Shown one piece after another: positions 607-61,067 of a stretch of DNA of 64,000 nucleotides (the stretch's first letter is position 1; every line of letters begins with the position of its first letter). The position numbers and the translations under genes were made by a program. The stretch covers positions 128,001 to 192,000 of the forward strand of contig CAXXKT010000001.1 of assembly GCA_963662405.2 (NCBI GenBank). Direction: 5' to 3'. The DNA comes from Syntrophales bacterium. Its GTDB lineage: Bacteria; Desulfobacterota; Syntrophia; Syntrophales; UBA2210. Under the pieces are notes generated by a model that had not been told where the DNA came from, searched no databases, and saw only the letters and a list, made by a program, of their open reading frames with translations.

Positions 607-963
607 AACCATCTTTCATTTTACCCCACACCCTACCCCACACGGGAAGATGAATTTGGTCCTTTTCAGGCAATATGGGCGAAATATTTGTTGGGGTGGA
701 TGTTGATATATACTTGAAGGAATATCGTTGTTTCTTCCTCCTACCATGAATTTATATAGAGTGGTGTATAATCGATTAGTCGATGTTCATGGGAAGGCGG
801 GAGGACTCAGTGCTTCCTGGGCGTTAGAGCCCTCATTTCAGTATGTCCCAAGCCTCTGTGAACCATAATAGGTTGGTTGGATCATTGAATCCTTGTCACG
901 CTGGAGGATTGGTCTGGAGGCTATGGTTCCTGCTTTTCCTTTCATTCGTTAGGAGGTGAAGCG

Positions 964-2166
964 ATGTCAGGATTAACGGACAGCTTTAATGATTTTGTTG
1001 GAATAGATGTTTCCAAAGATAAATTCGACGCCTGCGGAATCACAAGAGATGCAGCACAGCTCTTCCAGTTTTCCGCGAGCATGGATCGTAAGGGCTTCGA
1101 TAAGTTGAGGGAACATCTTGCTTCTGTTTCCATTTCGTCCGTTTTAATCGGGATGGAATCAACAGCATCTTATCATATCAATCTTTTCTCGTACTTGATT
1201 TCAGAGGGTTACCGAGTGATCATCATTAATCCTCTGCTGATTTCCAATTACGTGAAGATGCAGCTCCGGAAAACCAAGACAGATAAGAAGGATGCCGCTG
1301 TTATTGCCATGTTTCTTCTTGCACACAGAAATACCCTGAGCCAACGATCATATTCTCCTTTGATTTCCGAGCTTCGGGATCTTTCACGTCAGCGGGAGAA
1401 TCTGGTTGATGAGATGACCGCTCTGAAGATCAACATCAAACGGCTCCTGAATATCACTTTTCCGGAATTGGAGCATATGACGTTGGTCTTTACGAAGTCT
1501 ATGCTGAAGCTTCTCCAGCAATACCCATCTGCTGTTGCTCTGAGAAGTGCGGATCCTATTCAATTGTCCCAGACGCTCATTGCAGATTCCTATGGGCACA
1601 AAAGAGAAGCATTTACCGCGGAGTTAATGAAGGCAGCTAGAGCGTCGGTCGGTACCCACAGTGCTGCGAAGGAAGTCATTCTTAAACAACAGGTGACCTT
1701 GCTCCTTCACTTTGAAGAGGACCTGCAAGAGATAACCGGCATATTAATTGAGATGAGCCGAAATCTGATGGAAGAAGACATAAACATTCTGACTTCCATA
1801 AAGGGCATTGGTAACAAAACTGCTGTTAATTTTCTCATTGAGATGGGGGGCGACATCAATCAGTATGATGATTCCGGGAAGATCATTGCCATGGCGGGCT
1901 TAGATCCGGCTGTTTACCAGTCAGGCAAACATGAAGGTAAAGGCAAGATCACGAAACGAGGGAACCGCCATTTACGGAGAGTCATCTGGATGATGGCAAC
2001 CAGGGTGATCAACTATAGCGATGTTTTCAAGACTTACTACCTCAAACGTAGAAAGGAGGGATTGCCGTATAAGATGGCAGTATTGGCCACCGCTCACAAA
2101 TTGATCCGTGTCATCTATGCCATGCTGACGCAACGGACAACTTTCTGCCCACAGATAAATTCATGA
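964..2166 (+). CDS. IS110-family transposase (recombinase)
   Basis: VGIDVSK, GMESTA, KTDKKDA DEDD domain; AGLDP..YQSG...KRGN..LR C-terminal domain; ~200-bp noncoding leader. Element ends not resolved. Confidence 0.95.
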   Translation: MSGLTDSFNDFVGIDVSKDKFDACGITRDAAQLFQFSASMDRKGFDKLREHLASVSISSVLIGMESTASYHINLFSYLISEGYRVIIINPLLISNYVKMQLRKTKTDKKDAAVIAMFLLAHRNTLSQRSYSPLISELRDLSRQRENLVDEMTALKINIKRLLNITFPELEHMTLVFTKSMLKLLQQYPSAVALRSADPIQLSQTLIADSYGHKREAFTAELMKAARASVGTHSAAKEVILKQQVTLLLHFEEDLQEITGILIEMSRNLMEEDINILTSIKGIGNKTAVNFLIEMGGDINQYDDSGKIIAMAGLDPAVYQSGKHEGKGKITKRGNRHLRRVIWMMATRVINYSDVFKTYYLKRRKEGLPYKMAVLATAHKLIRVIYAMLTQRTTFCPQINS

Positions 2167-2227
2167 TAGTTGACTGAAAGAGATGGGATCAAGAGTGAAG
2201 AAAAAGTGGAGGATTTCTTTCCGTATT

Positions 2228-2283
2228 CATTAACACAGAGTTCACCGGGGCGCTTACGCATCCGGTGAAACAACTTGTTCAGC
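2228..2283 (-). other. attC site, array 1
   Basis: Minus strand GCTGAAC...GTTTCACCGGATGCG-TAAG-CGCCCCGGTGAAC-tctgt-GTTAATG; imperfect palindrome with extra bases overlapping the gene stop. Confidence 0.8.
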
Positions 2284-2613
2284 ATTCGTGCTTTTAGACT
2301 CCGGGAGTGTGCCGGTTTTTAGTCGATACTCGTAGGTCTGTTCCTTTTTGCATCGGTTTACGATGGTTGTCTCATTAACGGGTGCTCCCATTGTCCAGTA
2401 GACTATTTCGTCTTCATCGAAATACGTAATACGTTTCTTGTAAAAGTGCCCCTCGTATCCGTATGATCTGATATGCCCGACAAGCTGAATAAATAATTCT
2501 TCGTCAAGGCGGTCACGTACAATATACTCGTGTGGCCAAGTAGGCGCATAGGTCTTGGCAAACGTCCACTTCTGCTCTGTGATAAAAGCTTTGAGGTTGG
2601 TGGGAAGCTTCAT
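2254..2613 (-). CDS. Hypothetical cassette protein
   Basis: ORF from MKLPTNL ending inside attC; start chosen downstream of the previous gene's stop. Confidence 0.75.
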   Translation of the reverse strand: MKLPTNLKAFITEQKWTFAKTYAPTWPHEYIVRDRLDEELFIQLVGHIRSYGYEGHFYKKRITYFDEDEIVYWTMGAPVNETTIVNRCKKEQTYEYRLKTGTLPESKSTNAEQVVSPDA

Positions 2614-2647
2614 CGTCTCATTCCTGTTCGGTGTCCCGGATGGCCTT

Positions 2648-3226
2648 TCAATATGGGATTCGTTCGTCCAGCCCGCGAATTGTCTCAGGTGCTGCAATAA
2701 CGAGTTGTCCGCGATTCTTCTCGCTCTTGGTTCCGATATGATTGTCAGCCGGATATAGCGCCGTGTCTACAGGATGGTTGTTCCTCAGATTCCAACCGAT
2801 GCACCCTTCAATGTGTTTTCGCAATTGAGGGTCAACCTCTACTGGGGCAAAGAAGATGTTTAGAACGGACACATATTTGATGACTGAACCATGGATGGTC
2901 TCGTATGCGTCAATCTGCTTATGCGGTCCATCTGGTGATTTGTCTCTCCACAGCCCCGGCCAAATGAGTTCGCAGATGCCTTGTTGCGCCTTGTCGGGAT
3001 CGAATATACCATAGTTGAGTCCGAGGATATGGATGAGGTGTTCCCGTTGTCGTTTTGCGAGAGACACCGTCTCTCCCACGTAGTGCACCATGTGTGTACG
3101 GTCAGCATGTTGCTGAATAGTCCATAGATATACTCCGGCAACACTGGCGCATGGTGCCGTGAAAACAGAATTATGACGATCCAGAAAGCTGAATGGCCCA
3201 GTAAAGTTTAGATTAAGCGTTTCCAT
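2648..3226 (-). CDS. Cassette protein, GIY-YIG nuclease-like
   Basis: GVYLW...VHYVGET..LAKR..EH motif; starts just after GTTCGGC. Confidence 0.6.
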   Translation of the reverse strand: METLNLNFTGPFSFLDRHNSVFTAPCASVAGVYLWTIQQHADRTHMVHYVGETVSLAKRQREHLIHILGLNYGIFDPDKAQQGICELIWPGLWRDKSPDGPHKQIDAYETIHGSVIKYVSVLNIFFAPVEVDPQLRKHIEGCIGWNLRNNHPVDTALYPADNHIGTKSEKNRGQLVIAAPETIRGLDERIPY

Positions 3227-3244
3227 GTGTTCCGTATCCTGGTT

Positions 3245-3281
3245 GCCGAACAATGTTTATATGGATCCTGATAAAAACCTA
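3245..3281 (-). other. attI-like site, array 1
   Basis: TAGGTTTTTATCAGGATCCATATAAACATT-GTTCGGC; 32/33 identical to 30267-30299. Confidence 0.7.
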
Positions 3282-3359
3282 TTTTCCTTCCTGCTATACG
3301 TACCAAAGTGGTGATTGCAACTGAGGTAATTTAGGTTCATCATCTGTCTGTATTTCTTA

Positions 3360-4532
3360 TTGATTCAGGATAAGGAGGCAGAGATGACCATGAAAGACGA
3401 TACTACACGGAAGGCAGCAATGTCTTCTGCAGTTACAGAACATCCCACCGCAACGACATCCTGGCATTACCAGACTCGTTTCCGTTTTTCATTACATCGT
3501 GATGGAAGTGTTGAGACACTCGCTACGATTTTGCAGCATCTTTCCCACATGGATCTTCCGGGCACGGATCATGTTGCGGCCTATCTGCGTTACCTGACCT
3601 ATCGTAACCGGCGCCCCCGGACGTTGACAAGTCGTTTTGGTTCCATAGTTTTGTTCCTCGCCATGGTGCGTGACAGCGGGAAGACACGTATTGAAGACGT
3701 TACCAGGAGAGATATTGAGTGCTTTATCGAGCACGAGCAGGACAGGGGCAATAAGATTACGACGATACGGACAAAGCTCGTCAATGTGCAAGCCTTTCTG
3801 CGCTATCTCGTGGAGGAGGAGATTGTTTCCCCGGATGTGTTTGGCAGGAGGATACGGTTGCAGCTGCCGGAGCGGCTGCCGAGGGCTATGGATCCTGACG
3901 ATCTACAGAAGCTGTTATCCGTGATTGACGATACCCGGGACCGAGCCATGATCATGGTACTGTTGAGGACGGGGATGCGCATCGGCGAGTTGCTCAATAC
4001 GAAGGTATCAGATGTCCACATCGGGGAACGGAGGATAGAGATTTACGAAGGCGAGAAGAACCGCCTGGGGCGCGTGGTGTATCTCAGTGACGATGCGATC
4101 CGTGCGCTCCGGAGGTGGTTGCAGGAGAGGAATCCCTGGGAGGCGTACCTTTTTTCCACTCATAGAAGCATATACCAGATGTCGTACAGCACCGCCCGTC
4201 TGATCTTCCATCGATATCTTGAGAAGGCGGGGTTACGTGACCGGGGCTATACGCTCCATACGCTTCGGCACACCTTTGCAACGGAGTTTCTCAACGCTGG
4301 CATGCGCCTGGAGTGTCTCCAGGTGCTGCTGGGTCACCGGAGTATCGAGGAGACCAGGCGCTATGCCAGGCTTACCGACAAGACCCGCGAGGAAGAGTAC
4401 TTTCGGGCCATGGCCCGGATAGAAGGGAGGGATAGTGATGGACATAACCAATGTCATCGTGAACTGGCGGCGGTTTCTGAAACGGAGAAACTGTTCGCCC
4501 AATACCGTGAAGAACTATCTGAATCTCATTAA
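3360..4532 (+). CDS. Tyrosine recombinase A with N-terminal SAM-like domain
   Basis: TGMRIGE, HTLRH, LLGH, TRRY motifs; start uncertain. Confidence 0.92.
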   Translation: MIQDKEAEMTMKDDTTRKAAMSSAVTEHPTATTSWHYQTRFRFSLHRDGSVETLATILQHLSHMDLPGTDHVAAYLRYLTYRNRRPRTLTSRFGSIVLFLAMVRDSGKTRIEDVTRRDIECFIEHEQDRGNKITTIRTKLVNVQAFLRYLVEEEIVSPDVFGRRIRLQLPERLPRAMDPDDLQKLLSVIDDTRDRAMIMVLLRTGMRIGELLNTKVSDVHIGERRIEIYEGEKNRLGRVVYLSDDAIRALRRWLQERNPWEAYLFSTHRSIYQMSYSTARLIFHRYLEKAGLRDRGYTLHTLRHTFATEFLNAGMRLECLQVLLGHRSIEETRRYARLTDKTREEEYFRAMARIEGRDSDGHNQCHRELAAVSETEKLFAQYREELSESH

Positions 4533-5331
4533 ACACTTTGTTGTCTGGGCGGACGTGCCCGTTGAGGAGGTGACGCATGCAACGGTATCGCGCTACATAG
4601 AGTATCTGATGCAGAAGCGGCTATCGCCCAAGACCGTCAACTGTCATCTGAACGGTATTCGTCAGTTCTATCACTATCTGCGGGAAGAGGAAGGGATCGG
4701 TATTGTCAATCCCATCAGGAACAAACATACACAGAAGATGCCCCGACCCCTTCCCCGGCATTTACGAGACGAGCAGGTGGATCGTTTCTTTAACGTTGTG
4801 AATGGACACCGTGACCGTGCCATGTTCATGCTCATGCTCCGTTGCGGTCTCAGGGTGGAAGAGGTTGCCACCCTTGCCATCGGTGCCATAGACATCAAAC
4901 GCAGGGCTATCTTGATTGAGGACGGCAAGGGTGCAAAGGACCGGGTCGTGTATATGAGTAATGATGTGATTCAGTCACTGGCAGCCTATCTGAGAGTACG
5001 GCCGGCATCCCGGGCACGGAAGATCTTTCTGGCAGAGAAAGAGCCGTGCAGGGGCCAGCCCATCTCCATCCGCGGCATTCAACGGCGCATGGAACACTAT
5101 GCCCGCAAAGCGCGGATCAAAATGTCCTGTCATCATCTCCGGCATACGATGGCTACGCAGATGCTCAATGCCGATGCTGATCTGTGTACGATTCAGGATC
5201 TTCTCGGCCACAGCAATATAAAAACCACCCAGAGGTATTGCCGTGTATCGAACATGAAGGTTCAGAGAGATTACTTCAATGCCATGGAGGTCATTATGCA
5301 CCGAAGGGCCTGCAACCCACATAACACTTGA
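4438..5331 (+). CDS. Tyrosine recombinase B (XerC/D-like)
   Basis: CGLRVEE, GKGAKDR, HHLRH, LLGH, TQRY; GGAGG RBS; overlaps recombinase A. Confidence 0.92.
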   Translation: MDITNVIVNWRRFLKRRNCSPNTVKNYLNLIKHFVVWADVPVEEVTHATVSRYIEYLMQKRLSPKTVNCHLNGIRQFYHYLREEEGIGIVNPIRNKHTQKMPRPLPRHLRDEQVDRFFNVVNGHRDRAMFMLMLRCGLRVEEVATLAIGAIDIKRRAILIEDGKGAKDRVVYMSNDVIQSLAAYLRVRPASRARKIFLAEKEPCRGQPISIRGIQRRMEHYARKARIKMSCHHLRHTMATQMLNADADLCTIQDLLGHSNIKTTQRYCRVSNMKVQRDYFNAMEVIMHRRACNPHNT

Positions 5332-5509
5332 CGGAACAGAGAATATGTGAAATGGTAAACAACAACTAACCGCATAGAATCAATAGGTAAATCAGACTAT
5401 AGTACGTATAGCTTCCTGTAGTTGAGAAAAACAAGGGTGAAGAAGAAGTAGAATATTTCTTCCTGCAATCATTAGGAAAATAGTCGCTGTTGTCACTATT
5501 TTTCAAGAC

Positions 5510-8500
5510 TTATACGGCGTTATTTTTGGACTTCAAGATAATAGTGTCTGTATAAGCTTTTTGAAAAAGGTCGCTTTCTGCCGTACCGCTTGTCAATCCC
5601 GATGCAAGATGATTGAAAATTCTTTTTTTAGACTCAATCTCATATTCAGCGATCATTTCTGCTAATAACGATTTCGATCTGTTTTCTATATCTCTGTCCA
5701 TATCAATCCCATAGGCAAATTCCACGACGTCTTTATATATACTCCAAGCTTGTGCCCAGTATTTTATATCTTCGTGGTCACGTCTTATTCTCTTTAAAAG
5801 TTCAAGAGATATAGACAGAAATGATCTCGCTAAGAAGTTAAGCTTGTCCCTTTCTGCTTTTTGAACGAACTGTATTTTTTTGAACCAAACATACCAAATA
5901 GCTGTAATTATATTTTGTTCAACTAATATGCCATCCTCTTTACTGATCATGTATGATAAAAATTGTCCAATCTCGGTCAATGCGTTTTTGTAATCCCCTT
6001 TAAACCACCAAATAGCATTTATGAATGAATTGAAGGCTTGGTGATTATTTAATATCTCCAAATAATTCTCTATGCTTCCCCCCGCCTCTGAAAGATCATC
6101 TTCGAGAACAATCAATATATCCTTATAGTTTATCGGCATTCCAACCACATTAAATGCGCATAGCTGGGCGAATTTCTCTGCGGCTTCTTTTTGAGTTATT
6201 ACCTTCTTTTCTTTTAATATCGTTATTATATCGATTGTAGATATAGTATCTTCATAATGATTCTTACCACAAACATAGAGCCTTGATATTGCATCATCTG
6301 TATAAAATATGGGTTTTAATGAGTCATAAACAGACTTTATTTTATCTAATTCACTGAAAATATTATTTTCATCTATTATATCTTTACTTGAAGGTTGTTG
6401 AATCTGTTCAACATATCTTGATAATAATTCAACTATATCTTTAGCTTTGGTTGCATAGGGGATAAAAACAAATTGTTGAGCCAACATCTGTAAGTTAGCG
6501 ATTGAGTCTTTTGCGATTGCAATTTTAGGAAATATATCAAAAATGTATTCTAATAATGCTAAGTCGAATAAAATCAACAAAGCCACATCATCAATAAGAG
6601 GCATTCGCCCTCTAAGGTTCTCTATTCTTCTTGGCACATAGGGCCCGGGGCTAATAGTCAGCTGATATTGCAGATCATCCTTTCCGGTTATCTTGGACAA
6701 CTCCCACAGGTGAATAAAGTTCGAAACGTTCAATAAAAAATGATGCCTGATTAAATAAGGAACAGGAAGCGTGCCGCTGCTTAAAAGATTTTCATTCCGC
6801 TGGTACCATTCCCTTTTTTCTTTTGTGAATCCTGTTATAGTTTCTAGTTGAGATAATAGATCTTCGTGCGATTTTTCTTTTACATGGAATGATCTTAAAA
6901 CTTTTGACTCTGGAAATCTCTCTGTATATTTCTTAAGCCGTTTTTGAAACTCTTGAACGTTCTCATCTTGAACCGTTTTTTCAGGATCAAGTGTTGCCAC
7001 AAAGAAATTTAACAAATAAAGTCCTTCTTCAGCTTCATCATTTTGGTCACACAATTGGCCATATTTTAAACATATATCAATCAACCTCTCACTCTTTGGA
7101 TTGATATACATTTCAATGTTAAACAACATCCTCAAAAAATGTACCTTCTGCTTTTGATAAGTTGCTTTCTCAAGAAGTCGGGTGACCAAGGTTTTGGCTT
7201 TTTCGATCAGACCACATCTTGCTGATATATTTATATAGATTTCAAGTGCAAACGGGTCATGTTTTTCTCCTTGTGAGATTTCTTCTAAAAGTGTTAATGA
7301 TTTTCCTGTTTCTCCAATTCCATCTAGTGCTAAAGCCTCAAATGCTTTAAACTGAGAGTTGGTTGAAAATCTGATTTGTGCCTTGCGGGATGTTGCTAAA
7401 ACGCCATGCCAGTCTTGGACTGTTACTTTAGCCTGACAAAGAATAGTGTATTCGCTGTCTAGTAAATCCCTCTCCGAAATGATATCAATCGAAATTTCAA
7501 TAATTTTTTGTGCTGCGGCGTTTTCATATGGGTTAAGGTTATTAAAAAGTTGAGCTAATAATTGATTGTGTTTGTGACCTTCTTTGTAAACATCATATAG
7601 TTTTTCAATTGCCTCAGGCTTTTTTAACGCTTCCTGATTTGCGTGCAAAATAAAATCATATACTGCGATCAATGACCTTGAATTAGGGACCGTTTGTAGT
7701 GCCTCAAGAAACTTGTCTCTTTCAGTATACTTCATGAGATCATTAGCGCATTCAGCTGCAATTGCGATAACGGTGTCATAGTTAGCGGGTTTTTCTTTGA
7801 TTAGATCGTCAAGTATTTCAATAGCTAATTTGACCACTTCCGCTTTATCGTTTTTCCAATAAGTTAAAATGATTTTATTGGCTTTATTGTTTAGTGTATT
7901 TGGTAGCTTACATAATTGCCGCTCTGCAATGGTTCGATCACTTGTATGCATTGCAACTTGAAACAAACTTTCCTGTACAATTTGAATGGATGGTCTGATG
8001 TCTGCCAATTTAACGAGGTGTTTTTTAACGATTTCTGGCTCATTAAAATACATGCCTAAAATAGAGAATATATCGATCATCGATTGAACGTCAGGGGGGT
8101 ACCCTAATTTATCAGCTAAATTCATCGCAGATATTAACTCTATCCATGCGTTCTTTAATATTTCCGGATTCATGTCAGGAGTGCCTGCGAAAGATATCGC
8201 TTTGTCATCAGGAGTTTTTCTGAATCCAAGATTGAAGTATGATCTGGCTTTTAATGATCTTAAACTTAGTTCTTGTCTATCAGTTAAATCTTGTTCTGAG
8301 AATGCTTTGTTGACTTGGTTTATACAGTCATTGTATGAGCCTGAAAGCAAATGTATAAGCGCTTTAAGGACGAAAATGTCTTGTTCGTCCTGGTTTTCTA
8401 AAATTTTAAAGGCTTCTTCATATCTTTCGTTTAAAGCCAGCAATTTTGACTTCAGCCGAAGGTAATCAAGATCATTCTTTTTTTCTATCTCTGATAAAAT

Positions 8501-9478
8501 GCCATCAATTGTTTTGTCGTCTTTCCTTTCATCCGGAATTCTCGATTCTAAATAGGCGAGATGATATTTTTGAAACTCCTTAGAAGTTAGATGGGCTTGC
8601 TTGTGTAAGTTGAGTGCTTCTTCACGTTTCCCAACAAGACTTGCCAAGTAGGCTCTTTGGTAATAGTATTCAGATTGTTCATGCTGACTTGCTTCTTCTA
8701 ATTGATCTGCTAATTTATCAAGCCTGTCTTGAGCTAGTATTGCGTTATTTAAAGATAGAATCTCGGAGACTTTTTTTAATTCATACGCAAAACTACCTTC
8801 TGGCGCATCTAACCAAGGTGTCTCAGTTTTGTTAAGGATTGTATCGAGAGCTACTTTATTGGTCCCAAAAATGCTTCCAATCTGATTAATCTTATTTATA
8901 GGATCAGAATATTTTTTCTCTACTATATCGTATATTCCTTCCAGAACCCTCTTTTTTTCTAAACGGTTGTTTAAGTATGGCAAAACGTTTAGACTTGAGT
9001 TTAAGACATTTTCGACAGGAATGTGAAATGTGTGTGTATCCTCGCCTAAATGATCGAGAGTTGGCTTTCCTGCTCGAAGCTGGTCAATTTTTTCATCCAT
9101 CCACAAATAGTAAGCTGTACACTTCCTAGGTTCTTCATCTTGGGTAAGATCCGCAAACACCAACATAACTGGGTTTTCGATTCTTATATAATAATTTAAA
9201 TTTCGAATGTCTAAAGGTTGAGAGAAATGTTTACCATCAGCACTGAGCCATTTATTTCTGCCATCCTTTATCTGTGCTGAACCCTTTATTTGAGCATTAA
9301 ACACGTTCTTATAATGCCCTTGTTCAACGATTTGCACTTGCATGTCTAAACCAGCATCAGCATCACCATCAGTCTGAGTTGGTCTCCATGACTTGGGATG
9401 ACAGCTGTTAAACGTCATAACTGCAAAATGCCCTATTTCTTGTGAAACAGATTCTTTTGGTAACTTAGTCTCTTTCAT
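5510..9478 (-). CDS. 1322-aa DUF4365-like PD-(D/E)xK nuclease + TPR-like repeats + probable C-terminal PIN domain; defence candidate
   Basis: DAGLDMQV...AQIKGS at N-terminus; long helical middle; LIDDVAL...FYTDD at C-terminus; AT-rich. Confidence 0.7.
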   Translation of the reverse strand: MKETKLPKESVSQEIGHFAVMTFNSCHPKSWRPTQTDGDADAGLDMQVQIVEQGHYKNVFNAQIKGSAQIKDGRNKWLSADGKHFSQPLDIRNLNYYIRIENPVMLVFADLTQDEEPRKCTAYYLWMDEKIDQLRAGKPTLDHLGEDTHTFHIPVENVLNSSLNVLPYLNNRLEKKRVLEGIYDIVEKKYSDPINKINQIGSIFGTNKVALDTILNKTETPWLDAPEGSFAYELKKVSEILSLNNAILAQDRLDKLADQLEEASQHEQSEYYYQRAYLASLVGKREEALNLHKQAHLTSKEFQKYHLAYLESRIPDERKDDKTIDGILSEIEKKNDLDYLRLKSKLLALNERYEEAFKILENQDEQDIFVLKALIHLLSGSYNDCINQVNKAFSEQDLTDRQELSLRSLKARSYFNLGFRKTPDDKAISFAGTPDMNPEILKNAWIELISAMNLADKLGYPPDVQSMIDIFSILGMYFNEPEIVKKHLVKLADIRPSIQIVQESLFQVAMHTSDRTIAERQLCKLPNTLNNKANKIILTYWKNDKAEVVKLAIEILDDLIKEKPANYDTVIAIAAECANDLMKYTERDKFLEALQTVPNSRSLIAVYDFILHANQEALKKPEAIEKLYDVYKEGHKHNQLLAQLFNNLNPYENAAAQKIIEISIDIISERDLLDSEYTILCQAKVTVQDWHGVLATSRKAQIRFSTNSQFKAFEALALDGIGETGKSLTLLEEISQGEKHDPFALEIYINISARCGLIEKAKTLVTRLLEKATYQKQKVHFLRMLFNIEMYINPKSERLIDICLKYGQLCDQNDEAEEGLYLLNFFVATLDPEKTVQDENVQEFQKRLKKYTERFPESKVLRSFHVKEKSHEDLLSQLETITGFTKEKREWYQRNENLLSSGTLPVPYLIRHHFLLNVSNFIHLWELSKITGKDDLQYQLTISPGPYVPRRIENLRGRMPLIDDVALLILFDLALLEYIFDIFPKIAIAKDSIANLQMLAQQFVFIPYATKAKDIVELLSRYVEQIQQPSSKDIIDENNIFSELDKIKSVYDSLKPIFYTDDAISRLYVCGKNHYEDTISTIDIITILKEKKVITQKEAAEKFAQLCAFNVVGMPINYKDILIVLEDDLSEAGGSIENYLEILNNHQAFNSFINAIWWFKGDYKNALTEIGQFLSYMISKEDGILVEQNIITAIWYVWFKKIQFVQKAERDKLNFLARSFLSISLELLKRIRRDHEDIKYWAQAWSIYKDVVEFAYGIDMDRDIENRSKSLLAEMIAEYEIESKKRIFNHLASGLTSGTAESDLFQKAYTDTIILKSKNNAV

Positions 9479-22741: not shown

Positions 22742-25700
22742 ATGGATGTTACGAGAAGAGGTTTTCTAACTATTTCCGGCGCGGTCGGATCGGGCATCGC
22801 CTTGTCCTCTCTGGGCATCAATCTGAAACCAACGAAGGCGTATGCAAGCGAACTCAACAAGATGAACCGGCTCAGGGCAGCCAAGCAGGTCACGACGGTA
22901 TGCTGCTACTGCGCCGTGGGGTGCGGCCTCATCTGCAGTGTCGACAAGGTTACCGGCAAGATATTCAATATCGAGGGCGACGCCGATCATCCCATTAATG
23001 AAGGGTCACTGTGCGCGAAGGGGGCCGGATTCTTCGACCTGACGGAGGCCAACAAGTACCGTCTCCGGAAAGTTCTCTACCGTGCGCCGAAGAGCGACCG
23101 GTGGGAAGAAAAGGACTGGGACTGGGCCCTTGCCCGTATCGCCCGCCTGGTCAAAGACACCAGAGAAAAGGATTTCATCACCACCAACAGCAAAGGCCAG
23201 ATCGTCAACCGGACCGAATCGATCGGACATCTGGGAAGTTCCAACGTCGACAGCGAGGAGTGCTGGCTGATGAGCGTGATCTCACGCGCCATGGGGCTTG
23301 TCTATGTTGATCACCAGGCCCGGGTCTGACACAGCCCGACTGTAGCGGCTCTGGCAGAGTCGTTCGGACGCGGTTCCATGACAAACCACTGGATAGATCT
23401 CCAGCACAGCGATTGTATACTGATTATGGGCAGCAATGCGGCGGAACATCACCCCATTGCCTTCAAATGGATGCTCCGGGGAAAAGAAAAGAACGGAACG
23501 AGACTCATCCATGTCGATCCCCGCTTCACCAGGACATCGGCCCGTTGCGATTATCACGTTCCCCTGCGTTCCGGAACCGATATCGCCTTCCTGGGCGGGA
23601 TGATCAACTACATTCTCAACTCCGATAAATATTTCAAAGATTACGTCGTCAACTACACCAACGCCCCCTTTATCGTGGCGGAGGGTTTCGGCTTCAACGA
23701 CGGTCTCTTTACGGGGTACGACAAAGACAAGAAAAAATACAACAAGGAGACATGGGTGTTTGAAAAGGACTTTGCGGGAAATCCCAAGAAAGATCCTTCC
23801 CTCAATCATCCGCGCTGTGTCTTCCAGCTCCTGAAAAAACACTACACCCGCTACACCCTGGAGAAGGTCTCCAGCACCACCGGCGTTTCCAAGGAAGACC
23901 TGATGAAGGTCTACACGGACTACGGGAGCACCGGCGTGGGCACCCGCGCGGGGACGATCTGTTACGCCCTGGGCTGGACGCACCATTCGACGGGTACGCA
24001 GAATATCCGCACCATGGCCATGATTCAGCTCCTGCTCGGCAATATCGGGATCAACGGCGGCGGCGTCAACGCCCTTCGAGGCGAACCCAATGTCCAGGGA
24101 TCGACCGATCACTGTATCCTGTACGGCAATCTGCCGGGCTACCTGAAGATGCCCAAGGCGTCTCAAGACACGCTCGATAAATATCTCAAAAAGTACACCC
24201 CGGTGACAAACGATTCCCAGTCGCCGAACTACTACCGGAACTATCCGAAGTTCTACGTGAGTTTCCTCAAGTCGCTCTTCGACGACAAGGGGACACCGGA
24301 AAACGAATTCGGCTATTCCTGGATGCCCAAACTGGATGACGACGTACCGTACTCCCTCATGCACCTCTTCGACACGATGTACAAGGGCACGGTGAAGGGG
24401 CTGTTTTCCGTAGGTACCGATCCGGCCGTCAGCTCGCCCAACGCGAACAAGGTGAGAAAGGCGCTGAAAAAACTGGACTGGCTGGTAAGCGCCAACATCT
24501 TCGACAACGAGACCTGTTCCTTCTGGAAGGGCCCCGGTGTCGATCCATCGAAGATCAAAACGGAGTGTTTCCTCCTCCCCGCCTCGGCCTCCATGGAAAA
24601 GGAAGGCAGCCAGACCAACAGCGGCAGATGGGTGCAGTGGAAATACAAAGCGGCCGAAGCCCCCGGCGATGCGATTCCCGTGGGAGAAATATTCATAAAG
24701 ATCATGCAGTCCGTTCAATCTCTCTACGCCAAGGAAGGCGGCATCAATCCCGAACCGATCCTGAATTTCAAATGCGATTACCATGACCGGAGCGGCAACT
24801 TCGTTGCCCTGGGAGCGGCCAAGCAGATCAACGGTTACTTCCTTAAGGACACGGTCATCAAGGGCAAAACCTTCAAGAAGGGACAACTGGTTCCGACCTT
24901 CGGCATGCTCCAGGACGACGGTTCCACCTCCAGCGGCAACTGGCTCATGGCGGGAAGCTTCACCGCCGACGGCGAAAACAATATGACCAAACGCGGGAAG
25001 GACGATCCGACAGGTCTCGGCCTCTACCCCAACTGGACGTGGGCCTGGCCCGTCAACAGGCGCATCCTGTACAACCGCGCCTCCTGCGATATTAACGGAA
25101 AACCGTACAACCCGAAGAGAAAGCTCCTCGAGTGGACCGGTGAAAAATGGGTGGGCGACGTCCCCGACGGCGGCTGGGCGCCCATGGCCGATCGCGAGAA
25201 TGGGAAGTACCCCTTCATCATGAAACCCGACGGCGTGGGATCGCTCTTCGGTCCCGGTATGGCGGAAGGACCGTTCTCCGAGCATTACGAGCCCTATGAG
25301 ACGCCTCTGAAGAAAAATCCCCTTTCCAGCCAGTTGAACAATCCGGCGCTCCACGTGTTCACGACCGACATGGATCAGTTGGCCAACGGAGACGGGAAGT
25401 TCCCTTATGTCTGTACCACCTATTCCTGCACCGAGCACTGGTGTTCCGGTGCGCTGACGCGATGGCAGGCGTGGCTCCTGGAGATGCAGCCGGAGGCATA
25501 CGTCGAAATCGGCGAAAAGCTTGCGCAGGAAAAGGGCATCAAGAACGGCGAAAAAGTAAAGGTGTCCTCGGCCCGGGGATTTGTGAAATGCGTGGCCATG
25601 GTTACCAAGCGATTCCGCCCCTTCCTCGTTGAAGGCAAGACGGTGCATCAGGTCGGTCTGCCCTTCAATTATGGGTGGTTGTTCCCCGAAGATGGCGGGG

Positions 25701-25792
25701 ATAGCGCCAACATACTTACGCCCTCTGTCGGTGACGCGAATACCCACTGTCCCGAATACAAGGCGTTCATGGTTAACGTGACGAAGAGTTAG
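22742..25792 (+). CDS. fdnG: Periplasmic formate dehydrogenase alpha subunit, selenoprotein (UGA 23327-23329)
   Basis: Tat motif TRRGFL; CCYCAVGC; DHQARV-U-HSPTV joins the two ORF-track pieces in frame. Confidence 0.95.
23337..23362 (+). promoter_or_regulatory. SECIS hairpin
   Basis: CGACTGTAGCGGCTCTGGCAGAGTCG just 3' of the UGA. Confidence 0.7.
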
Positions 25793-27350: not shown

Positions 27351-27444
27351 TAATGAGTACGAATGAAGGCTGTCTTTGTTTGCTTCCTGTAGTCGATAAA
27401 AACCAGAGTGAAGAAATAGTAGTGGTTTCTTTCAGTACTCATTA
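27351..27444. repeat. 94-bp unit with 10-bp terminal inverted repeats, containing the conserved array-distal segment
   Basis: TAATGAGTAC...GTACTCATTA; right part similar to 5412-5474 and 2190-2232. Confidence 0.6.
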
Positions 27445-27501
27445 CGGACTGCTGTGGGGCGCGCGGTCGTTTTGCGCGCCCCTACCAGCAGATAGTTAGC
27501 A
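27439..27501 (-). other. attC site, array 2, third cassette
   Basis: TGCTAAC...GCTGGTAGGGGCGCGC-loop-GCGCGCCCCACAGC-agtcc-GTAATGA (GTA instead of GTT). Confidence 0.8.
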
Positions 27502-27508
27502 TAGCTTT

Positions 27509-28243
27509 TTATGTTTTCGCCATCGCTTTTGAAAGATTACCTGATTTTTTCCACCCATAAAAAGTTTTTTCAAAAAATTCTTTAGACGCTGTATTTTCAA
27601 TCAGGACAGGTAATATACCATTATAATTTAGGAAAAGCTTTTCATTGTATGGTAGCTGTCCAGTATGGTTTGAAATAAAAAACACCCATGTTAAACCCGC
27701 CAACACAAACATATAACATCGATGTCCATCAAATCTTGTTTCTTTAGCGAGCATCATCATTTTGCTGGTAAAATCGAAATAGGACGGGGTAAAGATTATG
27801 AGGCATCCATAGTCATAAGATGCACCTGGATTACCCTCGTATAACATAGAACGTAATTTTTCTTCATGAGGTCCTAAGCTAACGTTTGTAAATTGATGAA
27901 GATTTGATGCTCCTGCTCGCCATATAAGCGAAAGCTGAAATAGTTTAAACTTTGTATAATCAATATTTTTTATTATGATAAAATCACTCATTTTCTCCAT
28001 ACTTAGCTTATTACCACTAAAAAACACTTGAGCAGCATATGTTTCCCATTTATTCAGTCTGTCTTCGCATTCTCGGCAAAGCATCTTTTCCCTAAAGCCC
28101 TTTTGCCATTTTCTTACTTTTGGTGCACCTTCTATTTGAACGAATTGATGCTTTTCCTTGGCATAAAGAGCTTTGAAAAGAAATTCTGGGACTATATGCG
28201 AATTACATAGTTCTTTTTCTTTAAGGCACAATCTACATTTCAT
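27509..28243 (-). CDS. Cassette protein, HNH-endonuclease-like
   Basis: CRLC....L..SHIVP...LCRECE N-terminal motif. Confidence 0.65.
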   Translation of the reverse strand: MKCRLCLKEKELCNSHIVPEFLFKALYAKEKHQFVQIEGAPKVRKWQKGFREKMLCRECEDRLNKWETYAAQVFFSGNKLSMEKMSDFIIIKNIDYTKFKLFQLSLIWRAGASNLHQFTNVSLGPHEEKLRSMLYEGNPGASYDYGCLIIFTPSYFDFTSKMMMLAKETRFDGHRCYMFVLAGLTWVFFISNHTGQLPYNEKLFLNYNGILPVLIENTASKEFFEKTFYGWKKSGNLSKAMAKT

Positions 28244-28253
28244 AGTGAATTGA

Positions 28254-28315
28254 TGCTAACGGGCTGCTCAGGGGCGCGCGGCTTTTGCGCGTTTACTGCA
28301 GCAGCAATGTTATAG
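28254..28315 (-). other. attC site, array 2, second cassette
   Basis: CTATAAC...GCTGCAGTAAACGCGC-loop-GCGCGCCCCTGAGC-agccc-GTTAGCA; CTATAAC is complementary to the GTTATAG that opens the cassette. Confidence 0.9.
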
Positions 28316-28333: not shown

Positions 28334-28936
28334 TTATAGAGGGTCTTCATTAGATAAACGTATTTCAAAAGTGTTACCTAAATACATAATATTTAGACAG
28401 TTTCCATGGCCTAAAAATACTCTTTCCATACCTTCTTTAGCTGGTTGAAGTCGGTATTCGACCTGAGTAACCTTTGCTGCAACCGCAATTTTAACACCGA
28501 AAAATGTATCTGGATCGTTTTTTATTGCTTTGATAATTGAATAAACCTTTTGCTTGGGGCAAAGAAGTTCCAGCTTAAGCTCTGGCGAATGCCTTGAGGC
28601 CCTTATCAATAGCTGGTAGTTGATATCATCACATGTAGCCACATTCTCCAAGGTTCCGATAAACAGAATGGGTTTGCCAATTAACCATACTGCCTCTAAA
28701 TCAATCGAGTAGAGACATCGGGAATGCTTTTTAATAATGGATTCTCTCCAGCTAGTATCAGCTCCCGAATCCCTAGCAAAAGCTTGGACTGCCAAGCGTA
28801 GGGCCTCTTCTTGAGCTTTTTCTTTAGCGCCAGAATCTGCGATATCTTTCTGACGATCTGAGCATGATAGCATACACAAGCTAAGAATGGCCGCAGTTAC
28901 AATAATGAGCCTCTTAAATCGATGTATATGTGTCAT
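28334..28936 (-). CDS. Cassette-encoded putative lipoprotein
   Basis: Start after GTTATAG-AGGTAGG; signal peptide ending LCMLSC. Confidence 0.7.
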   Translation of the reverse strand: MTHIHRFKRLIIVTAAILSLCMLSCSDRQKDIADSGAKEKAQEEALRLAVQAFARDSGADTSWRESIIKKHSRCLYSIDLEAVWLIGKPILFIGTLENVATCDDINYQLLIRASRHSPELKLELLCPKQKVYSIIKAIKNDPDTFFGVKIAVAAKVTQVEYRLQPAKEGMERVFLGHGNCLNIMYLGNTFEIRLSNEDPL

Positions 28937-28950
28937 GGGTTTTCCTACCT

Positions 28951-29024
28951 CTATAACGTTGTCTTCACCGGTGGCGACGAAGTGAAGTGGAATTGTCCCA
29001 TCCGAGTGCAAGGCATGGTTGGCA
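28951..29024 (-). other. attC site, array 2, first cassette
   Basis: TGCCAAC-catgc-CTTGCACTCGGATGG...CCACCGGTGAAG-acaac-GTTATAG with extrahelical bases. Confidence 0.9.
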
Positions 29025-29027
29025 TTT

Positions 29028-30248
29028 TCATCCAAATGAAAAAGACGTATTCTTGCTAAATACTTTTATCTCACCATCGGCGGAGATTTTCACAGAAAGC
29101 CCATAATCTTTCAGTGTGTTCGCTGCTGCAAGTCGCGCACCTCCGTCTGACCCTGCTTCCAGCTTAAGTATCGCTCCTGCAGAAATAAACTTTCCTGTAG
29201 CATCAAGAACCACCGCACCGTCAATACCGAGAATTTCTTGCCTCAATCTTCTATCTGTATTTTGAAAGGTAGCATTATTTATAGCCGCTAATAATACCTT
29301 GGTTTTGATAGATCGATTATTTTCGAAATGATCTGATTCATTAACCCTTTGATCATCATGAAATTTTTTAGATTTCGCCTTTTGAAGTATCCCGATGCAA
29401 GCACCAGTACGTGCAAATGAAACGTCAATGATTGACTCATAAAGGCTTTCCCTCAGATTTCTATCAAGTTTCCTGCTTTTAAACGCTAATTGTCTTAATA
29501 CTGAATTGTAAGCGAATAGCCTCCATTCCCCTCTTCTTTTAGCAAATATGAGGGTCCCAGAGTTGAAAACTAATATTTCGCCATTTCTATTTAATATAAG
29601 GGCGATCTTGTTGTTTCCCTCAGTATATTTTGCAAAGGTGGTGTAGCGGAAAGGTGAGTTGTGAGTTTCTGGTGCGAGGTTAAGTGTTTGGTATCCAATA
29701 AGATTATTTCCGATGGAAAATTCCACCAATGTATCGTACCCATTTGTCAATACCTTCGAAAAATCATTCTTTGTATATTCTTCAAAAGTTGTACCATTTG
29801 ACGAAATAACATTCATATCAATGCCAATAGATACAGCTATCCTATTACCTTCATATGTCTCTCCTGACCAACGTTCCAATTTTTCAATAAATCTGGCTAT
29901 CTCCAGAATTTTATTAGAATCGTCATCCTCAACCAAAGATTTTGCTATAACCCTACTAACAGTGTTCGATATCAGATACTTTTGAATTTGTTCATCAAGT
30001 GTTGCATAATCATTAGCTATATTAAATACATCTCTGATAATTTTTGTTTCATTAGATTCAAAAGGTTGGGCTCTATAAACAATATACCGTCCTCCTTCTT
30101 CACAAAGAATCCCAATTTTAGAGCCTCCGCTTAGGTGTGATACATCTTTCTTCTGATTTCCTGAATCTTGTTCAAAAGATATATCAATACCAGAGAAAAA
30201 TTTAACAATTTGGTTAGAGAGTATAAAGTCAACTAAATCTTTTTTCAC
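29028..30248 (-). CDS. Cassette protein with C-terminal DisA_N/diadenylate-cyclase-like domain
   Basis: TGACIG, IDGAVVLD..G, GGARLAAA, VKISADG. Confidence 0.75.
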   Translation of the reverse strand: MKKDLVDFILSNQIVKFFSGIDISFEQDSGNQKKDVSHLSGGSKIGILCEEGGRYIVYRAQPFESNETKIIRDVFNIANDYATLDEQIQKYLISNTVSRVIAKSLVEDDDSNKILEIARFIEKLERWSGETYEGNRIAVSIGIDMNVISSNGTTFEEYTKNDFSKVLTNGYDTLVEFSIGNNLIGYQTLNLAPETHNSPFRYTTFAKYTEGNNKIALILNRNGEILVFNSGTLIFAKRRGEWRLFAYNSVLRQLAFKSRKLDRNLRESLYESIIDVSFARTGACIGILQKAKSKKFHDDQRVNESDHFENNRSIKTKVLLAAINNATFQNTDRRLRQEILGIDGAVVLDATGKFISAGAILKLEAGSDGGARLAAANTLKDYGLSVKISADGEIKVFSKNTSFSFG

Positions 30249-30262
30249 ATCTGCTCCTTATA

Positions 30263-30299
30263 TACCAACAATGTTTATCTGGATCCTGATAAAAACCTA
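30263..30299 (-). other. attI-like site, array 2
   Basis: TAGGTTTTTATCAGGATCCAGATAAACATT-GTTGGTA; GTTGGTA pairs with TGCCAAC of the first attC. Confidence 0.7.
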
Positions 30300-30561
30300 A
30301 ACACGGCAGTTTTGCTGTATGAAGCCTCTCACGAAAAACAAAAAGCCCCACCTCTCTTTGATGAGAAACAGGGCTTTGATAATCAGACCATAATCCACTC
30401 CTTGGTTACAGCCAGTCACAAGCAGAAAAAATCAAGATCAAGATTTCATCTAGCTAACTCTATGATGATGTATTGTCAAGAGATTTTACCATGAGACCTT
30501 CAATCAGTATTCATCGATTTTCTTCTGGAATTATTTTGAGCAGTAGTAGATACCGTTCTTG

Positions 30562-31530
30562 TCAAGCGAAAGCTGGTTTATAATTTGGGTCATACTTTTT
30601 GCCGGATTTCAGGATTCCAAAGATAATGTGCACCAGCTTCCTCATTATCGCACAGACAATCACTTTCCCGTTTTTTCCTTTCTCTTTAAGGCGATTATAA
30701 AAAGCAATCATAACGGGATTACATTGGATCGATACCAGTGCCGGCATATACAGAGCTTTTCTGAGCCGCGCATGTCCGATTTTGCATAACCTGGGTTTGC
30801 CTTTAATAGATGATCCTGAAAGTGTTTCCCGTGGCGCAAGCCCGATGAACGCCACCAGTTCCCGCACATGACTGAATTTGTCCAGATCATCCAATTCTGC
30901 CAGGATGTGAGGAATGGTTGCCGTGCCGATACCTGGAATGGAAGCCAAGAGCCCTTTCTTGTTTTTCAGGTTCGGATCCCGATCAATTAGATCAGCAATC
31001 TGTTCCCTGATTTTCTCTATTTCCTTATCAAGATAGTTAATGTGTTCTCTGATCAATGGAATAACTGATTCATGAGCTGCACTTATTCGATTCTTCTCCT
31101 GACTTCGCATGTTGATCAGACTGTCAACTCGCCTGACCAACGCCCTCAGGGCTCTGATCTCCGGTGAGGGTGGACTCCAGGGATCTGGTCTCATAGCCAG
31201 ACAGAATCTGGCAATCAAGGCTGCATCAACCTTATCCGTCTTGGTGCGAATCAACTCGCTCTGGCCAAACCCTTTGATGCGAGCGGGATTGACAACACTG
31301 ACCACATGGCCGGTTTCATGGAGATAGATCGCCAATTCCTCTCCATAGTTGCCGGTCGCCTCAAGGCAGGCATGTACCTTATGAACTCCCTGTCTCTCCA
31401 GCCAGATCGTCAGTGTCTCAAAACCTTCCACCGTATTTTTGCAGGTTTTGTGTTTTGTCTTCCCCTCTACAAGAAGTGCAACGTCGAATTTCTGTTTTGC
31501 GATATCTATCCCAAGAACCGATACTGACAT
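30562..31530 (-). CDS. IS110 transposase (IS621-like size)
   Basis: LGIDIAK, LEATG, KTDKVDA, GLAP...SGSS. Confidence 0.96.
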   Translation of the reverse strand: MSVSVLGIDIAKQKFDVALLVEGKTKHKTCKNTVEGFETLTIWLERQGVHKVHACLEATGNYGEELAIYLHETGHVVSVVNPARIKGFGQSELIRTKTDKVDAALIARFCLAMRPDPWSPPSPEIRALRALVRRVDSLINMRSQEKNRISAAHESVIPLIREHINYLDKEIEKIREQIADLIDRDPNLKNKKGLLASIPGIGTATIPHILAELDDLDKFSHVRELVAFIGLAPRETLSGSSIKGKPRLCKIGHARLRKALYMPALVSIQCNPVMIAFYNRLKEKGKNGKVIVCAIMRKLVHIIFGILKSGKKYDPNYKPAFA

Positions 31531-31574
31531 ACTACAATACTCCCTCGTACATTAATCTAATCTCCAGTAAAATA

Positions 31575-31735
31575 GCTTCGTTCGAATCAACCTTGTAAGT
31601 GCAAACTCATTCCCATCTGAGAAGGTTTATGATACCGTACGAGTTATTGAACAAAGCTGTGGGAAGAGGATCTACTCTACAAATCATGCTCTCTGGCATC
31701 AGGTGAAACACAGATTCACTCTCCCCATTTTACCC
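31575..31735 (-). ncRNA. Putative bridge RNA of IS110 copy A; ends approximate
   Basis: Two loops with segments matching target (GTTTCACCT, GTAG) and donor junction (ACGGTATCA, ACAAG). Confidence 0.7.
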
Positions 31736-31875
31736 CAGTGTCTCAAGATCTCTTATATCTCCTAATCCCCTTCTAGAACACAAGGTGCTATACGTAACAA
31801 AATGGTGGTTGCAACTGAGCCATCATAGGTTCATCATCTATCTGTATTTCCTGTTGATTTGGTGGGAAGGAGAGA

Positions 31876-33039
31876 GTGATGAGCCAAAAAGCCACAGAAA
31901 CGTATTCTGTCTTATCTCCGTCATCCCTGACTGGTTTGAGAAACACCGATCATGGTGAGGGGATACAGCACACCGTTGTTTTCAAACCGGGCATTCCTGA
32001 AAAAACAGGGTGCATTGAGGGCCTTCGATACCAGCAACAGTCAAAAGCACTTCGATGGGCATTAGATCGTATTGCGGCCTGGAACCTGCCTGGCACGGAG
32101 CATGTTGAGGAATATTTTCGGAGCATGTATCGGCGGAACTTCAGGCCCAGAACATACGCTAGCAACTTGGCAGCGATTCATGTCTTTCTCACCGTTGTCA
32201 GGGATTCGGGAAAGGCCCATTTGGAAGAGGTTACCAAAGGTGACATTGAAGCCTTTATCGAGCATGAGCAGGATCGAGGGTTGATGTTATCAACAGTACG
32301 GACGAGGCTGCATTGCGTCAATGCCTTTTTAGGCTATGCAATAGATTCAGGTATTGTTGGCACCGATGTCCTGGCACGAAGGATCCGCCTGAAAAAGCCG
32401 GAGACATTGCCTCGAGCCATAGATCCTGATGACGTCAAGCTTCTTCTCTCCGTTATCGATCATCCCAGAGATCGAGCCATGGTCACGGTACTTCTACGGA
32501 CGGGAATGAGAATCGGCGAGTTACTCGGTACCATGGTACGGGATCTTCACATGAAAGACCGGAGGGTTGATATTTACGAAGGGGAGAAGAATCGTATCGG
32601 GAGAGTGGTCTATCTCAGCGATGATGCGGTCAGTACTTTGAAGGCATGGCTCAAGATGAGAGATGCCCATAAGGAGTTTCTCTTTTATGCCCGAGGTAAA
32701 AGTAGCATGTCTTACAGCACTGCTCGTCAGATATTTGTAGATTATCTCACGAAAGCCGGTCTTGCTTATAAGGGATACTCCCTTCATGCGCTTCGCCATA
32801 CCTTTGCCAGTGAGCTACTAAATGCCGGTATGAGGATCGAGTGTCTCCAGCCACTGATGGGGCATACATCTCTGGATGTCACCAGGCGCTATGCACGGCT
32901 TACGGACAAGACAAGAGAGGGAGAGTACTTCAGAGCCATGACAATCATAGAAAGGGGGAAAATTGATGGACATTACCGATGCGATCATCAGGTACAGGCG
33001 TTTCTTGAAGAGAAGGAACATCTCACCGAACACTATTAA
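31876..33039 (+). CDS. Tyrosine recombinase A
   Basis: TGMRIGE, HALRH, LMGH, TRRY; paralogue of 3360-4532. Confidence 0.92.
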   Translation: MMSQKATETYSVLSPSSLTGLRNTDHGEGIQHTVVFKPGIPEKTGCIEGLRYQQQSKALRWALDRIAAWNLPGTEHVEEYFRSMYRRNFRPRTYASNLAAIHVFLTVVRDSGKAHLEEVTKGDIEAFIEHEQDRGLMLSTVRTRLHCVNAFLGYAIDSGIVGTDVLARRIRLKKPETLPRAIDPDDVKLLLSVIDHPRDRAMVTVLLRTGMRIGELLGTMVRDLHMKDRRVDIYEGEKNRIGRVVYLSDDAVSTLKAWLKMRDAHKEFLFYARGKSSMSYSTARQIFVDYLTKAGLAYKGYSLHALRHTFASELLNAGMRIECLQPLMGHTSLDVTRRYARLTDKTREGEYFRAMTIIERGKIDGHYRCDHQVQAFLEEKEHLTEHY

Positions 33040-33859
33040 GAACTATTTGAATAGTCTCAAACGGTTTGTGATCTGGCTCGATGTACCGATCGAGGAGGTT
33101 ACATACCATAAGATTACAGCGTATATAGATTGCATGATCGGCCAACGGTTACGTCCGAAGACTATCAACTGTCATCTGAATACGGTTTGTCAGTTTTATC
33201 ACTACCTCATCGAAGAGGAAGGGCTCCCGATCGTGAATCCTGTCAGGAAACCAAATATCATGAAACTCCCCCGGGGACTTCCCAAACATCTCAGAGAAGA
33301 CCACATAGATATCCTCTTCAATCATCTGAAAGGATATCGGGATCGAGCCATGTTTACGCTCATGCTCCGATGTGGCCTGCGAGTGGAAGAAGTGGCTCAT
33401 CTTTCACTCGGCAACATTGATCTTAAACGCAGAATGCTCCTCATCCAGGATGGCAAGGGTGCCAAAGATCGAATTGTCTATATCAGTAACGATGCCCTTC
33501 ATGCTCTCGTGAAATATCTCTGGGTGAGGCCCGCAAACAAAGTAAGGAGGGTTTTTCTGGTAGAGAAAGGGCCATGCACGGGACGTCCTCTCTCCATTCG
33601 CGGCATTCAAAAGCGCATGGAGTATTATGCGCGTAAAACAGGACTCAAGATATCCTGTCACCATCTTCGTCATACAATGGCCACTCAGATGTTGAATGCA
33701 GATGCTGATCTGTCTACCATCCAGGATCTCTTGGGACATAACTCAATCAGGACAACACAACGATACTGCCGAATATCAAATCTCAAAGTACAGAGAGATT
33801 ACTACAAAGCCATGGAGGTGATCATGCAGAAGACGGCTGGCAACTCAAATAATCCTTGA
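32966..33859 (+). CDS. Tyrosine recombinase B
   Basis: CGLRVEE, GKGAKDR, HHLRH, LLGH, TQRY; paralogue of 4438-5331. Confidence 0.92.
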   Translation: MDITDAIIRYRRFLKRRNISPNTIKNYLNSLKRFVIWLDVPIEEVTYHKITAYIDCMIGQRLRPKTINCHLNTVCQFYHYLIEEEGLPIVNPVRKPNIMKLPRGLPKHLREDHIDILFNHLKGYRDRAMFTLMLRCGLRVEEVAHLSLGNIDLKRRMLLIQDGKGAKDRIVYISNDALHALVKYLWVRPANKVRRVFLVEKGPCTGRPLSIRGIQKRMEYYARKTGLKISCHHLRHTMATQMLNADADLSTIQDLLGHNSIRTTQRYCRISNLKVQRDYYKAMEVIMQKTAGNSNNP

Positions 33860-33950
33860 CGGGATAGAGGATTTATGAAACTTTAAACACAGCATAACAC
33901 CATAATATCAATGGTAAATATAGATTATGTTACGTATAGGTAGGTGCAAG

Positions 33951-34151
33951 ATGTGAGGTCCGGTGTAGCAGGGGCAGAGCTAGTGTTTGGTTGCGCTGTG
34001 CTTCCTGTTGTCAAGCTTCCAGTTAAGAGGGTTGTGCTTTATTACAAACGGTAATGGTTGACATACTGTAGTGCCGTTGGGAAACCAAGTGGAAAACGGA
34101 GTAAACAAGTCTAATCAACATGTAGAATCGAGAGAAAACGGTCTATTTGAC
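33951..34151 (+). mobile_element. Possible degenerate, internally deleted group II intron relic
   Basis: 5' similar to 37358 (GTGTG start); 3' GGGAAACCAAGTGG...GGTCTATTTGAC resembles an intron domain VI end. Confidence 0.4.
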
Positions 34152-37268: not shown

Positions 37269-37350
37269 GTGAAACACAGATTCACTCTCCCCATTTTACC
37301 CCAGTGTCTCAAGATCTCTTATATCTCCTAATCCCCTTCTAGAACACAAG
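37187..37350. repeat. Exact 82-bp tandem duplication of the IS110 left end
   Basis: 37187-37268 equals 37269-37350. Confidence 0.95.
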
Positions 37351-37357
37351 GTGAAAA

Positions 37358-61022: not shown

Positions 61023-61067
61023 CTTGATTTCGTCCTCTTGTCCTTGTAAGCAGACATTTCCGGAGCA

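Follow-up and report, generated by a model that had tools for sequence, protein, structure and literature searches.

A 33-bp attI-type motif at the head of integrase-less cassette rows in a Syntrophales genome, probably loaded in trans

Why does a short motif resembling an integron attachment site stand twice in a stretch of chromosome that has no integron integrase gene beside it? The stretch (hereafter the window) comprises 64,000 nucleotides, C1:128001-192000, of a Syntrophales genome of 3.8 Mb in three contigs. The 33-bp motif lies at 3249-3281 and 30267-30299, and a single base separates the copies (32/33 identical). As a sequence-only reading of the window had reported, the immediate flanks of the copies are unrelated and the minus strand of each ends TAAACATT-GTT. 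When the window was searched at up to three mismatches, these two matches were obtained, and 100 shuffles gave none. Both copies are covered, with no differences, by contigs of the probable source sample, which are not independent support. The statement that the motif is present twice holds within the window and not genome-wide, where four copies match copy 2 at 32-33 of 33 positions and the family has 16 members.

On the minus strand, an ORF begins within 25 bp of the GTT of each copy. Copy 1 heads one cassette with two ORFs; behind copy 2 there are three cassettes, and every one of these ends in an attC-type hairpin. In array 1 (minus strand unless stated), the attI core (3249..3281) has its crossover, G|TT, at 3251 and has lost the upstream 30 bp of the full site. 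The first ORF (2648..3226, 192 aa) had no match in Pfam, NCBIfam, PADLOC or PHROG. The second ORF of the same cassette (2254..2697) has 147 aa from its first possible start, and no attC was found between the two. The closing attC (2228..2283) was recognized by a fold heuristic and missed by our attC covariance model. An end segment, D, follows (2169..2234) and is interrupted by an IS110-family element (781..2183, plus strand; transposase 964-2166). On the other side lies element 1 (3294..5411, plus strand), which has inverted ends and encodes two tyrosine recombinases other than IntI (ORFs 3360-4532 and 4435-5331); it is flanked by a 7-bp direct repeat (3287-3293 and 5412-5418). If it is discounted, a further D segment (5411..5476) stands directly upstream of attI copy 1, which has D on both sides. 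A 1322-aa AT-rich ORF with a DUF4365 domain (5510-9478, minus strand) ends just before that D segment and gave a weak PADLOC match to an Argonaute-associated nuclease (E 2e-4).

Array 2 (minus strand unless stated) begins with attI copy 2 (30267..30330), made up of the core (30267-30299) and an upstream half-site, with the crossover G|TT at 30269. It is followed by the ORF of cassette 1 (29028..30248, 406 aa, no family match), attC 1 (28951..29024, missed by the covariance model), the ORF of cassette 2 (28334..29035, 233 aa from the first possible start), attC 2 (28254..28315, covariance model E 0.043), the ORF of cassette 3 (27509..28243, 244 aa, phrog_19960 of unknown function), attC 3 (27439..27501, E 0.38) and segment D (27382..27446). 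Upstream of the attI is a leader, U (30335..30541), which has a promoter-like TTGACA, a Met-X-stop minigene and a terminator (30342-30377) and is related to the leader of intI. Beyond it are an IS110-family element (30546..31787) inserted at the junction of segments G and U, the two-tyrosine-recombinase element 2 (31788..33939, plus strand; 60% and 66% amino acid identity to element 1) and segment G (33940..34006), which joins D to U in uninterrupted copies. PADLOC gave no match on the five cassette ORFs of the window. At array 2, TAATGAGTAC and its reverse complement (27351-27445) bracket D plus 30 bp; this bracket was not seen in the orthologous locus of genome G007 or in most other D copies.

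The attC covariance model was built from 10 attC sites, all outside the window, with covariation above that of all 500 shuffles. The model is insensitive: in the window it matched attC 2 and attC 3 of array 2 only, missing two of four attCs, and on 22 short loci of relatives it gave only two matches. By the published definitions, array 2 (three attC, no intI nearby) is a CALIN, for which at least two attC are required, and array 1 (one attC) is a SALIN. Neither attI has intI next to it as in a complete integron, the nearest intI lying 101 kb and 128 kb from the window copies.

The motif contains an inverted repeat (TTTATC...GATAAA), as might be expected of an attC tail, a possibility that the sequence-only reading had itself raised, or of a dif-like palindrome. 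However, it barely folds (-0.4 to -2.1 kcal/mol, compared with -9.5 to -19.1 for the bottom strands of the four window attCs) and is, unlike attC, not a single-strand hairpin site; the covariance model gave no match on it, and it does not follow the end of any co-oriented ORF. The arms of the repeat face opposite to those of dif. We see next to no chance that the motif is either of these.

Each window copy also has a two-recombinase element upstream (elements 1 and 2, 2.1 kb with inverted ends, both within the D-G-U repeat), which would suit a reading of the motif as the attachment site or end of that element, with the element also loading the arrays. However, the window recombinases score below the cut-off of TIGR02249 (integron integrase), the pairs are without the IntI-specific insertion near patch III, and the elements have inverted ends and 7-bp direct repeats of their own; we therefore regard them as separate insertions. 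The direct repeats of the two elements differ in sequence. Such elements stand at just 2 of the 16 family sites of the genome and at none of 11 metagenome sites, and their end motif was found in none of 150 other genomes. We consider it highly improbable that they explain the motif.

Mismatch, profile and matrix scans of the genome gave the 16 family members (the matrix score identified 13; of the others, one is gapped and two are decayed). Fourteen, hereafter orphans, lie more than 100 kb from any intI or on contig C2, which bears out the dispersal proposed earlier. The expectation that each copy would be followed by a gene and an attC also held at 12 of the 14 orphans, where an attC closes the first cassette or the row (two by eye only); orphan C1:1955934 has a damaged attC and orphan C2:150426 no clear one. 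The exact window-type pattern had one match among genome contigs, a search of viral contigs gave none, and Rfam at gathering score returned nothing for the motif or for U.

Two intI genes are present in the genome, one intact (C1:2211990-2212934), with the catalytic residues present, and one frameshifted. A family member lies 3' of each, in the same orientation as the gene; the distance is 139 bp for the frameshifted gene, and an IS3 intervenes for the intact one. A matrix was built from 10 orphan copies alone and applied to 24 intI loci of the bacterial family; the top match lay 177-188 bp 3' of intI at four loci and about 190-195 bp at a fifth, with the IS3 discounted. These are the five testable close loci, in which downstream DNA is present (66-100% identity); a sixth ends at a contig edge. 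At the distant loci the best score was below 9 in 18 of 18, and 8 of 500 random 4-kb windows scored at least 15. Because the broken-intI site is almost the same as two of the training rows, and one training row was off by a base, four of the matches count as independent.

In an alignment of 37 sites, information drops to background past GTT, and the next four bases fit RRRY in 24-25 of 37 sites at each position. GTT belonged to the patterns used in the site searches, and the RRRY bias behind it did not. The site consensus is about 62 bp long and includes a second TTATAC-type sub-site about 30 bp upstream, kept in copy 2 and lost in copy 1. The 33-mer is thus not the minimal attI that it had been called, but the conserved core of a longer site inside a larger platform. 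The same site family 3' of intI, the boundary of conservation at G|TT and the attC-closed cassettes support its identification as attI, and we consider it very likely that the motif is an attI-type site. The window subtype agrees with the two intI-linked sites of the same genome at 22 of 33 positions only. No intI, and no window subtype beside one, was seen at 17 sites of relatives or at the 11 metagenome sites, of which 9 are independent; the flanks covered ranged from 70 bp to 2.5 kb. Given this subtype and linkage, the window sites are putative cognate sites of the IntI of this genome. Behind a window-type attI in metagenome loci L125/L133, a 69-bp tandem repeat lies within an ORF (2883-3638).

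Orphans recur in the order D-G-U-(S)-attI-cassettes-attC-D. U lies within 600 bp upstream of attI at 10 of the 14 orphans, and D is found downstream at 10 and upstream at 7 of the 14 and at neither of the two intI-linked rows; the D counts include five D starts added by eye, and some D segments are shared between two neighbouring rows. The platform is present in other genera of the same bacterial family, with a D of 65 bp. Among genomes of that family, U was found in 28/36 and D in 24/37; U-S-attI-cassette-D recurs in G005 and G017, and attI-cassette-D in G014. U stands directly upstream of the site in 12/17 cases in relatives and 7/11 in metagenomes. The GGTTTTTATC 10-mer, suggested earlier as a possible protein-binding site, lies within D of array 2 at 27395-27404 and not at 27393-27402. 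It is exact in only one of 13 aligned D segments, of whose consensus TTTTATC is a part, and a fourth copy (46915-46924) falls within an unrelated ORF (expectation, 0.21 per window). The right end of D was also considered as an element end and rejected as unproven, several recurring continuations following D.

The genome has 51 full copies of U, all with TTGACA, followed by a conserved TA 17 nt later and a weak -10 box; the spacing from TTGACA to TAGAGT is 11. No promoter was called here by a promoter scanner. In 37 of the 51 copies, a Shine-Dalgarno sequence and Met-X-stop minigene end five bases before a strong terminator. Because this terminator precedes attI and the -10 box is weak, U is only a candidate for Pc; attI copy 1 has no U-type promoter-like TTGACA before it. 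An attenuator or small RNA is a candidate role for U on sequence grounds. No attI stands behind 41 of the 51 copies; besides intI and cassette rows, the genes preceded by U include HU- and MscS-like ones (named from reading of their sequences). Two tandem genes have U-attI-like heads in G005 and U alone in the source genome. U gave a clear match to two of six intI leaders (E 4e-6 and 0.0016), and this resemblance suggests that the platforms began as intI deletions. The junction of G and U (window 30546 and 31787; C1:306362 and 1415773; C2:343269) is an insertion hot spot, with several copies of an IS110 as well as recombinase element 2 and, at four loci, inserts of about 150 bp. At its end, the second IS110 copy has an 82-bp tandem duplication (37160-37353).

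How did the sites come to be dispersed? The sequence-only reading had suggested a possibly mobile 33-mer. A minimal attI hopping alone would fit the unrelated immediate flanks of the four copies at 32-33/33, of which two have no upstream half-site, and the finding that 19 other fdnI-like genes, some of which may be paralogues, have no platform within 1.5 kb. However, the 33-mer is usually embedded in U-(S)-attI, has no inverted ends and no target duplication, and is kept at orthologous places, the platform occupying the same chromosomal place in another genome at two loci. When 301 genomes were searched for an empty platform (attI joined to D), five one-mismatch matches were obtained, none in a context of U, D, S or attI, and no such empty site was found before 27 D loci of relatives. 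Independent hopping of the 33-mer is thus very improbable. Terminal inverted repeats or target duplications were likewise not seen in the flanks of attI, U and D, where no allele pair fixes the ends.

Terminase, integrase or resolvase genes adjoin some orphans, and others lie among housekeeping genes. At C1:2671760-2679996, a platform starts at the G|TT that follows the final attC of another platform and ends in an attC, intact except for an IS, and it is therefore formally a composite cassette. IntI could excise such a unit (D-G-U-attI-cassettes-attC), an integron inside a cassette, and seed new platforms at D-type targets; we regard this as possible but doubtful, and spread of composite units by IntI would follow from it. 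Near the start of the window, an int-alpA RNA match (311-377) and an apparent tRNA 3' fragment (about 520-563) were noted; they likely mark the end of an island with an integrase at C1:119.4 kb.

The proposal that orphan sites are loaded in trans is supported by identical cassettes at orphan and intI-linked rows and by differing cassettes at orthologous loci. Behind orphan C2:54201, whose attI matches copy 2 at 32/33, lies an 896-bp cassette with 100% identity to cassette 3 of the broken-intI row. In that row the cassette stands after an attC and has since been interrupted by an IS. The identity extends from G|TT to 13 bp beyond the closing attC crossover, and this overrun leaves room for transfer of more than a single cassette, or for conversion. 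Similarly, orphan C2:287955 is followed by a 140-bp geneless cassette that has a 100% identical counterpart in the intact-intI row. A geneless cassette of about 140 bp (C1:2214391-2214533 and at least eight further places) is repeated through the intact-intI row and occurs also at orphan rows. Cassettes of the window rows are not duplicated elsewhere in the genome.

Metagenome locus L128 corresponds to C1:693.5 kb in its flank gene (89%) and has U-attI at the same place, and three different cassettes follow. G007:C38 and window array 2 have the fdnI 3' end, the terminator and the D end in common, and U-attI with two different cassettes lies at G007:C38, where attI has lost GTT; no intI was found in G007. 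In both orthologous orphan pairs neither partner has intI, yet the cassettes differ. Across genomes the last 28 bp of the site are exact and the flanks have diverged. A 94-nt stretch homologous to the start of cassette 2, found in run X3 from a separate study, is joined to a different attC-like hairpin, and the joint lies no more than 3 nt from the crossover. No excision joints were seen in contigs; a candidate joint, 30299-31826, was rejected as cross-mapping of copy 1.

These observations bear on whether the orphan rows are inert relics of many complete integrons, each of which lost intI, with cassette differences older than the loss. Such a history would account for the resemblance of U-attI to an intI deletion and for the decay of several sites, and the CALIN literature lists intI loss as a source (PMC4889954). 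However, it sits poorly with the 100% identical cassettes at orphan and intI-linked rows, the 28 exact bases within diverging flanks and the different cassettes at orthologous pairs without intI on either side, and we consider it unlikely. Several cassette products look defence-related (TIR, HNH and RelE).

Loading in trans of the orphan sites by an intact IntI elsewhere is, on these comparisons of sequence, quite probable, and we hold the explanation as a whole, an attI heading integrase-less rows that are loaded in trans, to be equally so. The motif is very likely the attI core of the co-oriented integron integrase of this lineage, and its rows, which have no integrase of their own, are likely served by the intact IntI about 2 Mb away. 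Each orphan would be a small platform of leader U, an attI of about 62 bp, one to a few cassettes and the 65-bp D, possibly derived from an integron with intI deleted, and IntI would insert cassette circles at G|TT. The near-identical cores amid diverged flanks would reflect selection or conversion and not recent copying. Most tentatively, the platforms may have spread as larger units, on islands and prophages and perhaps as composite cassettes moved by IntI.

Other features of the window were also noted. Three formate-dehydrogenase-like alpha subunits (22742-25792, 40496-43189 and 43285-45978) are each split into two ORFs with a short gap, which suggests, from the sequence, a selenocysteine TGA. 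A Thr-rich tandem repeat (59044-59198) lies in a pilin-like ORF, and two near-identical tandem amidohydrolase genes (59697-62393) are 1371 bp apart.

In the available portions of the CALIN/SALIN papers (PMC4889954; bioRxiv 10.1101/2022.09.11.507474), attC-closed cassettes with no intI nearby, often with an IntI elsewhere, are treated as relics, cassette donors or insertions at secondary sites (attG), and attI is not searchable. The rows described here share the intI-less, attC-closed organization, but they keep a conserved attI and leader and have apparently received cassettes. As far as the accessible text of PMC12901181 describes it, class 1 attI1 has 65 bp with L and R boxes and DR1/DR2. 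The family site resembles it in its G|TTRRRY crossover, its similar length (about 62 bp) and perhaps its repeated upstream sub-sites, whereas sequence likeness is limited to TAAA...GTT, the family site lies 3' of a co-oriented intI, and this one genome has 16 copies. Transcription of intI toward attI and cassettes is shared with the co-oriented integrons of Treponema (PMC3607928) and with archaeal integrons, in which attI is downstream of intI (PMC9668308); those two papers, in their accessible parts, have one attI for each integron and do not describe an orphan attI family. In Delta-attI-type cassettes a truncated attI can remain active, according to the same part of PMC12901181. There, Delta-attI replaces attC behind an ORF, whereas the family sites head a row, and what stands before them is U, S, D or an IS and not a cassette ORF. 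Integrase-defective integrons flanked by IMU/MITE are described, in the portion available, as moved by their flanking elements (PMC3575428), whereas the surroundings of the platform showed neither a MITE pair nor a target duplication.

In the open-access literature we found no description of multiple orphan attI sites. What sets these rows apart from CALIN/SALIN as described is that they keep a multi-copy attI and show signs of cassette uptake. Integrase-less clusters are common and are usually read as relics, partly because attI is unsearchable outside classes 1-3. With a searchable attI family, integrase-less rows can be seen as able to keep their docking site and to trade cassettes with rows linked to intI, which bears directly on the origin of CALINs. 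The 33-bp core and the 64-bp site form a natural pair for defining the attI of a co-oriented integrase. If one integrase serves 14 extra sites, new genes would be placed at many loci and islands, and if the composite-cassette reading is true, the lineage would have a distributed integron in which one integrase both serves and multiplies many docking sites.
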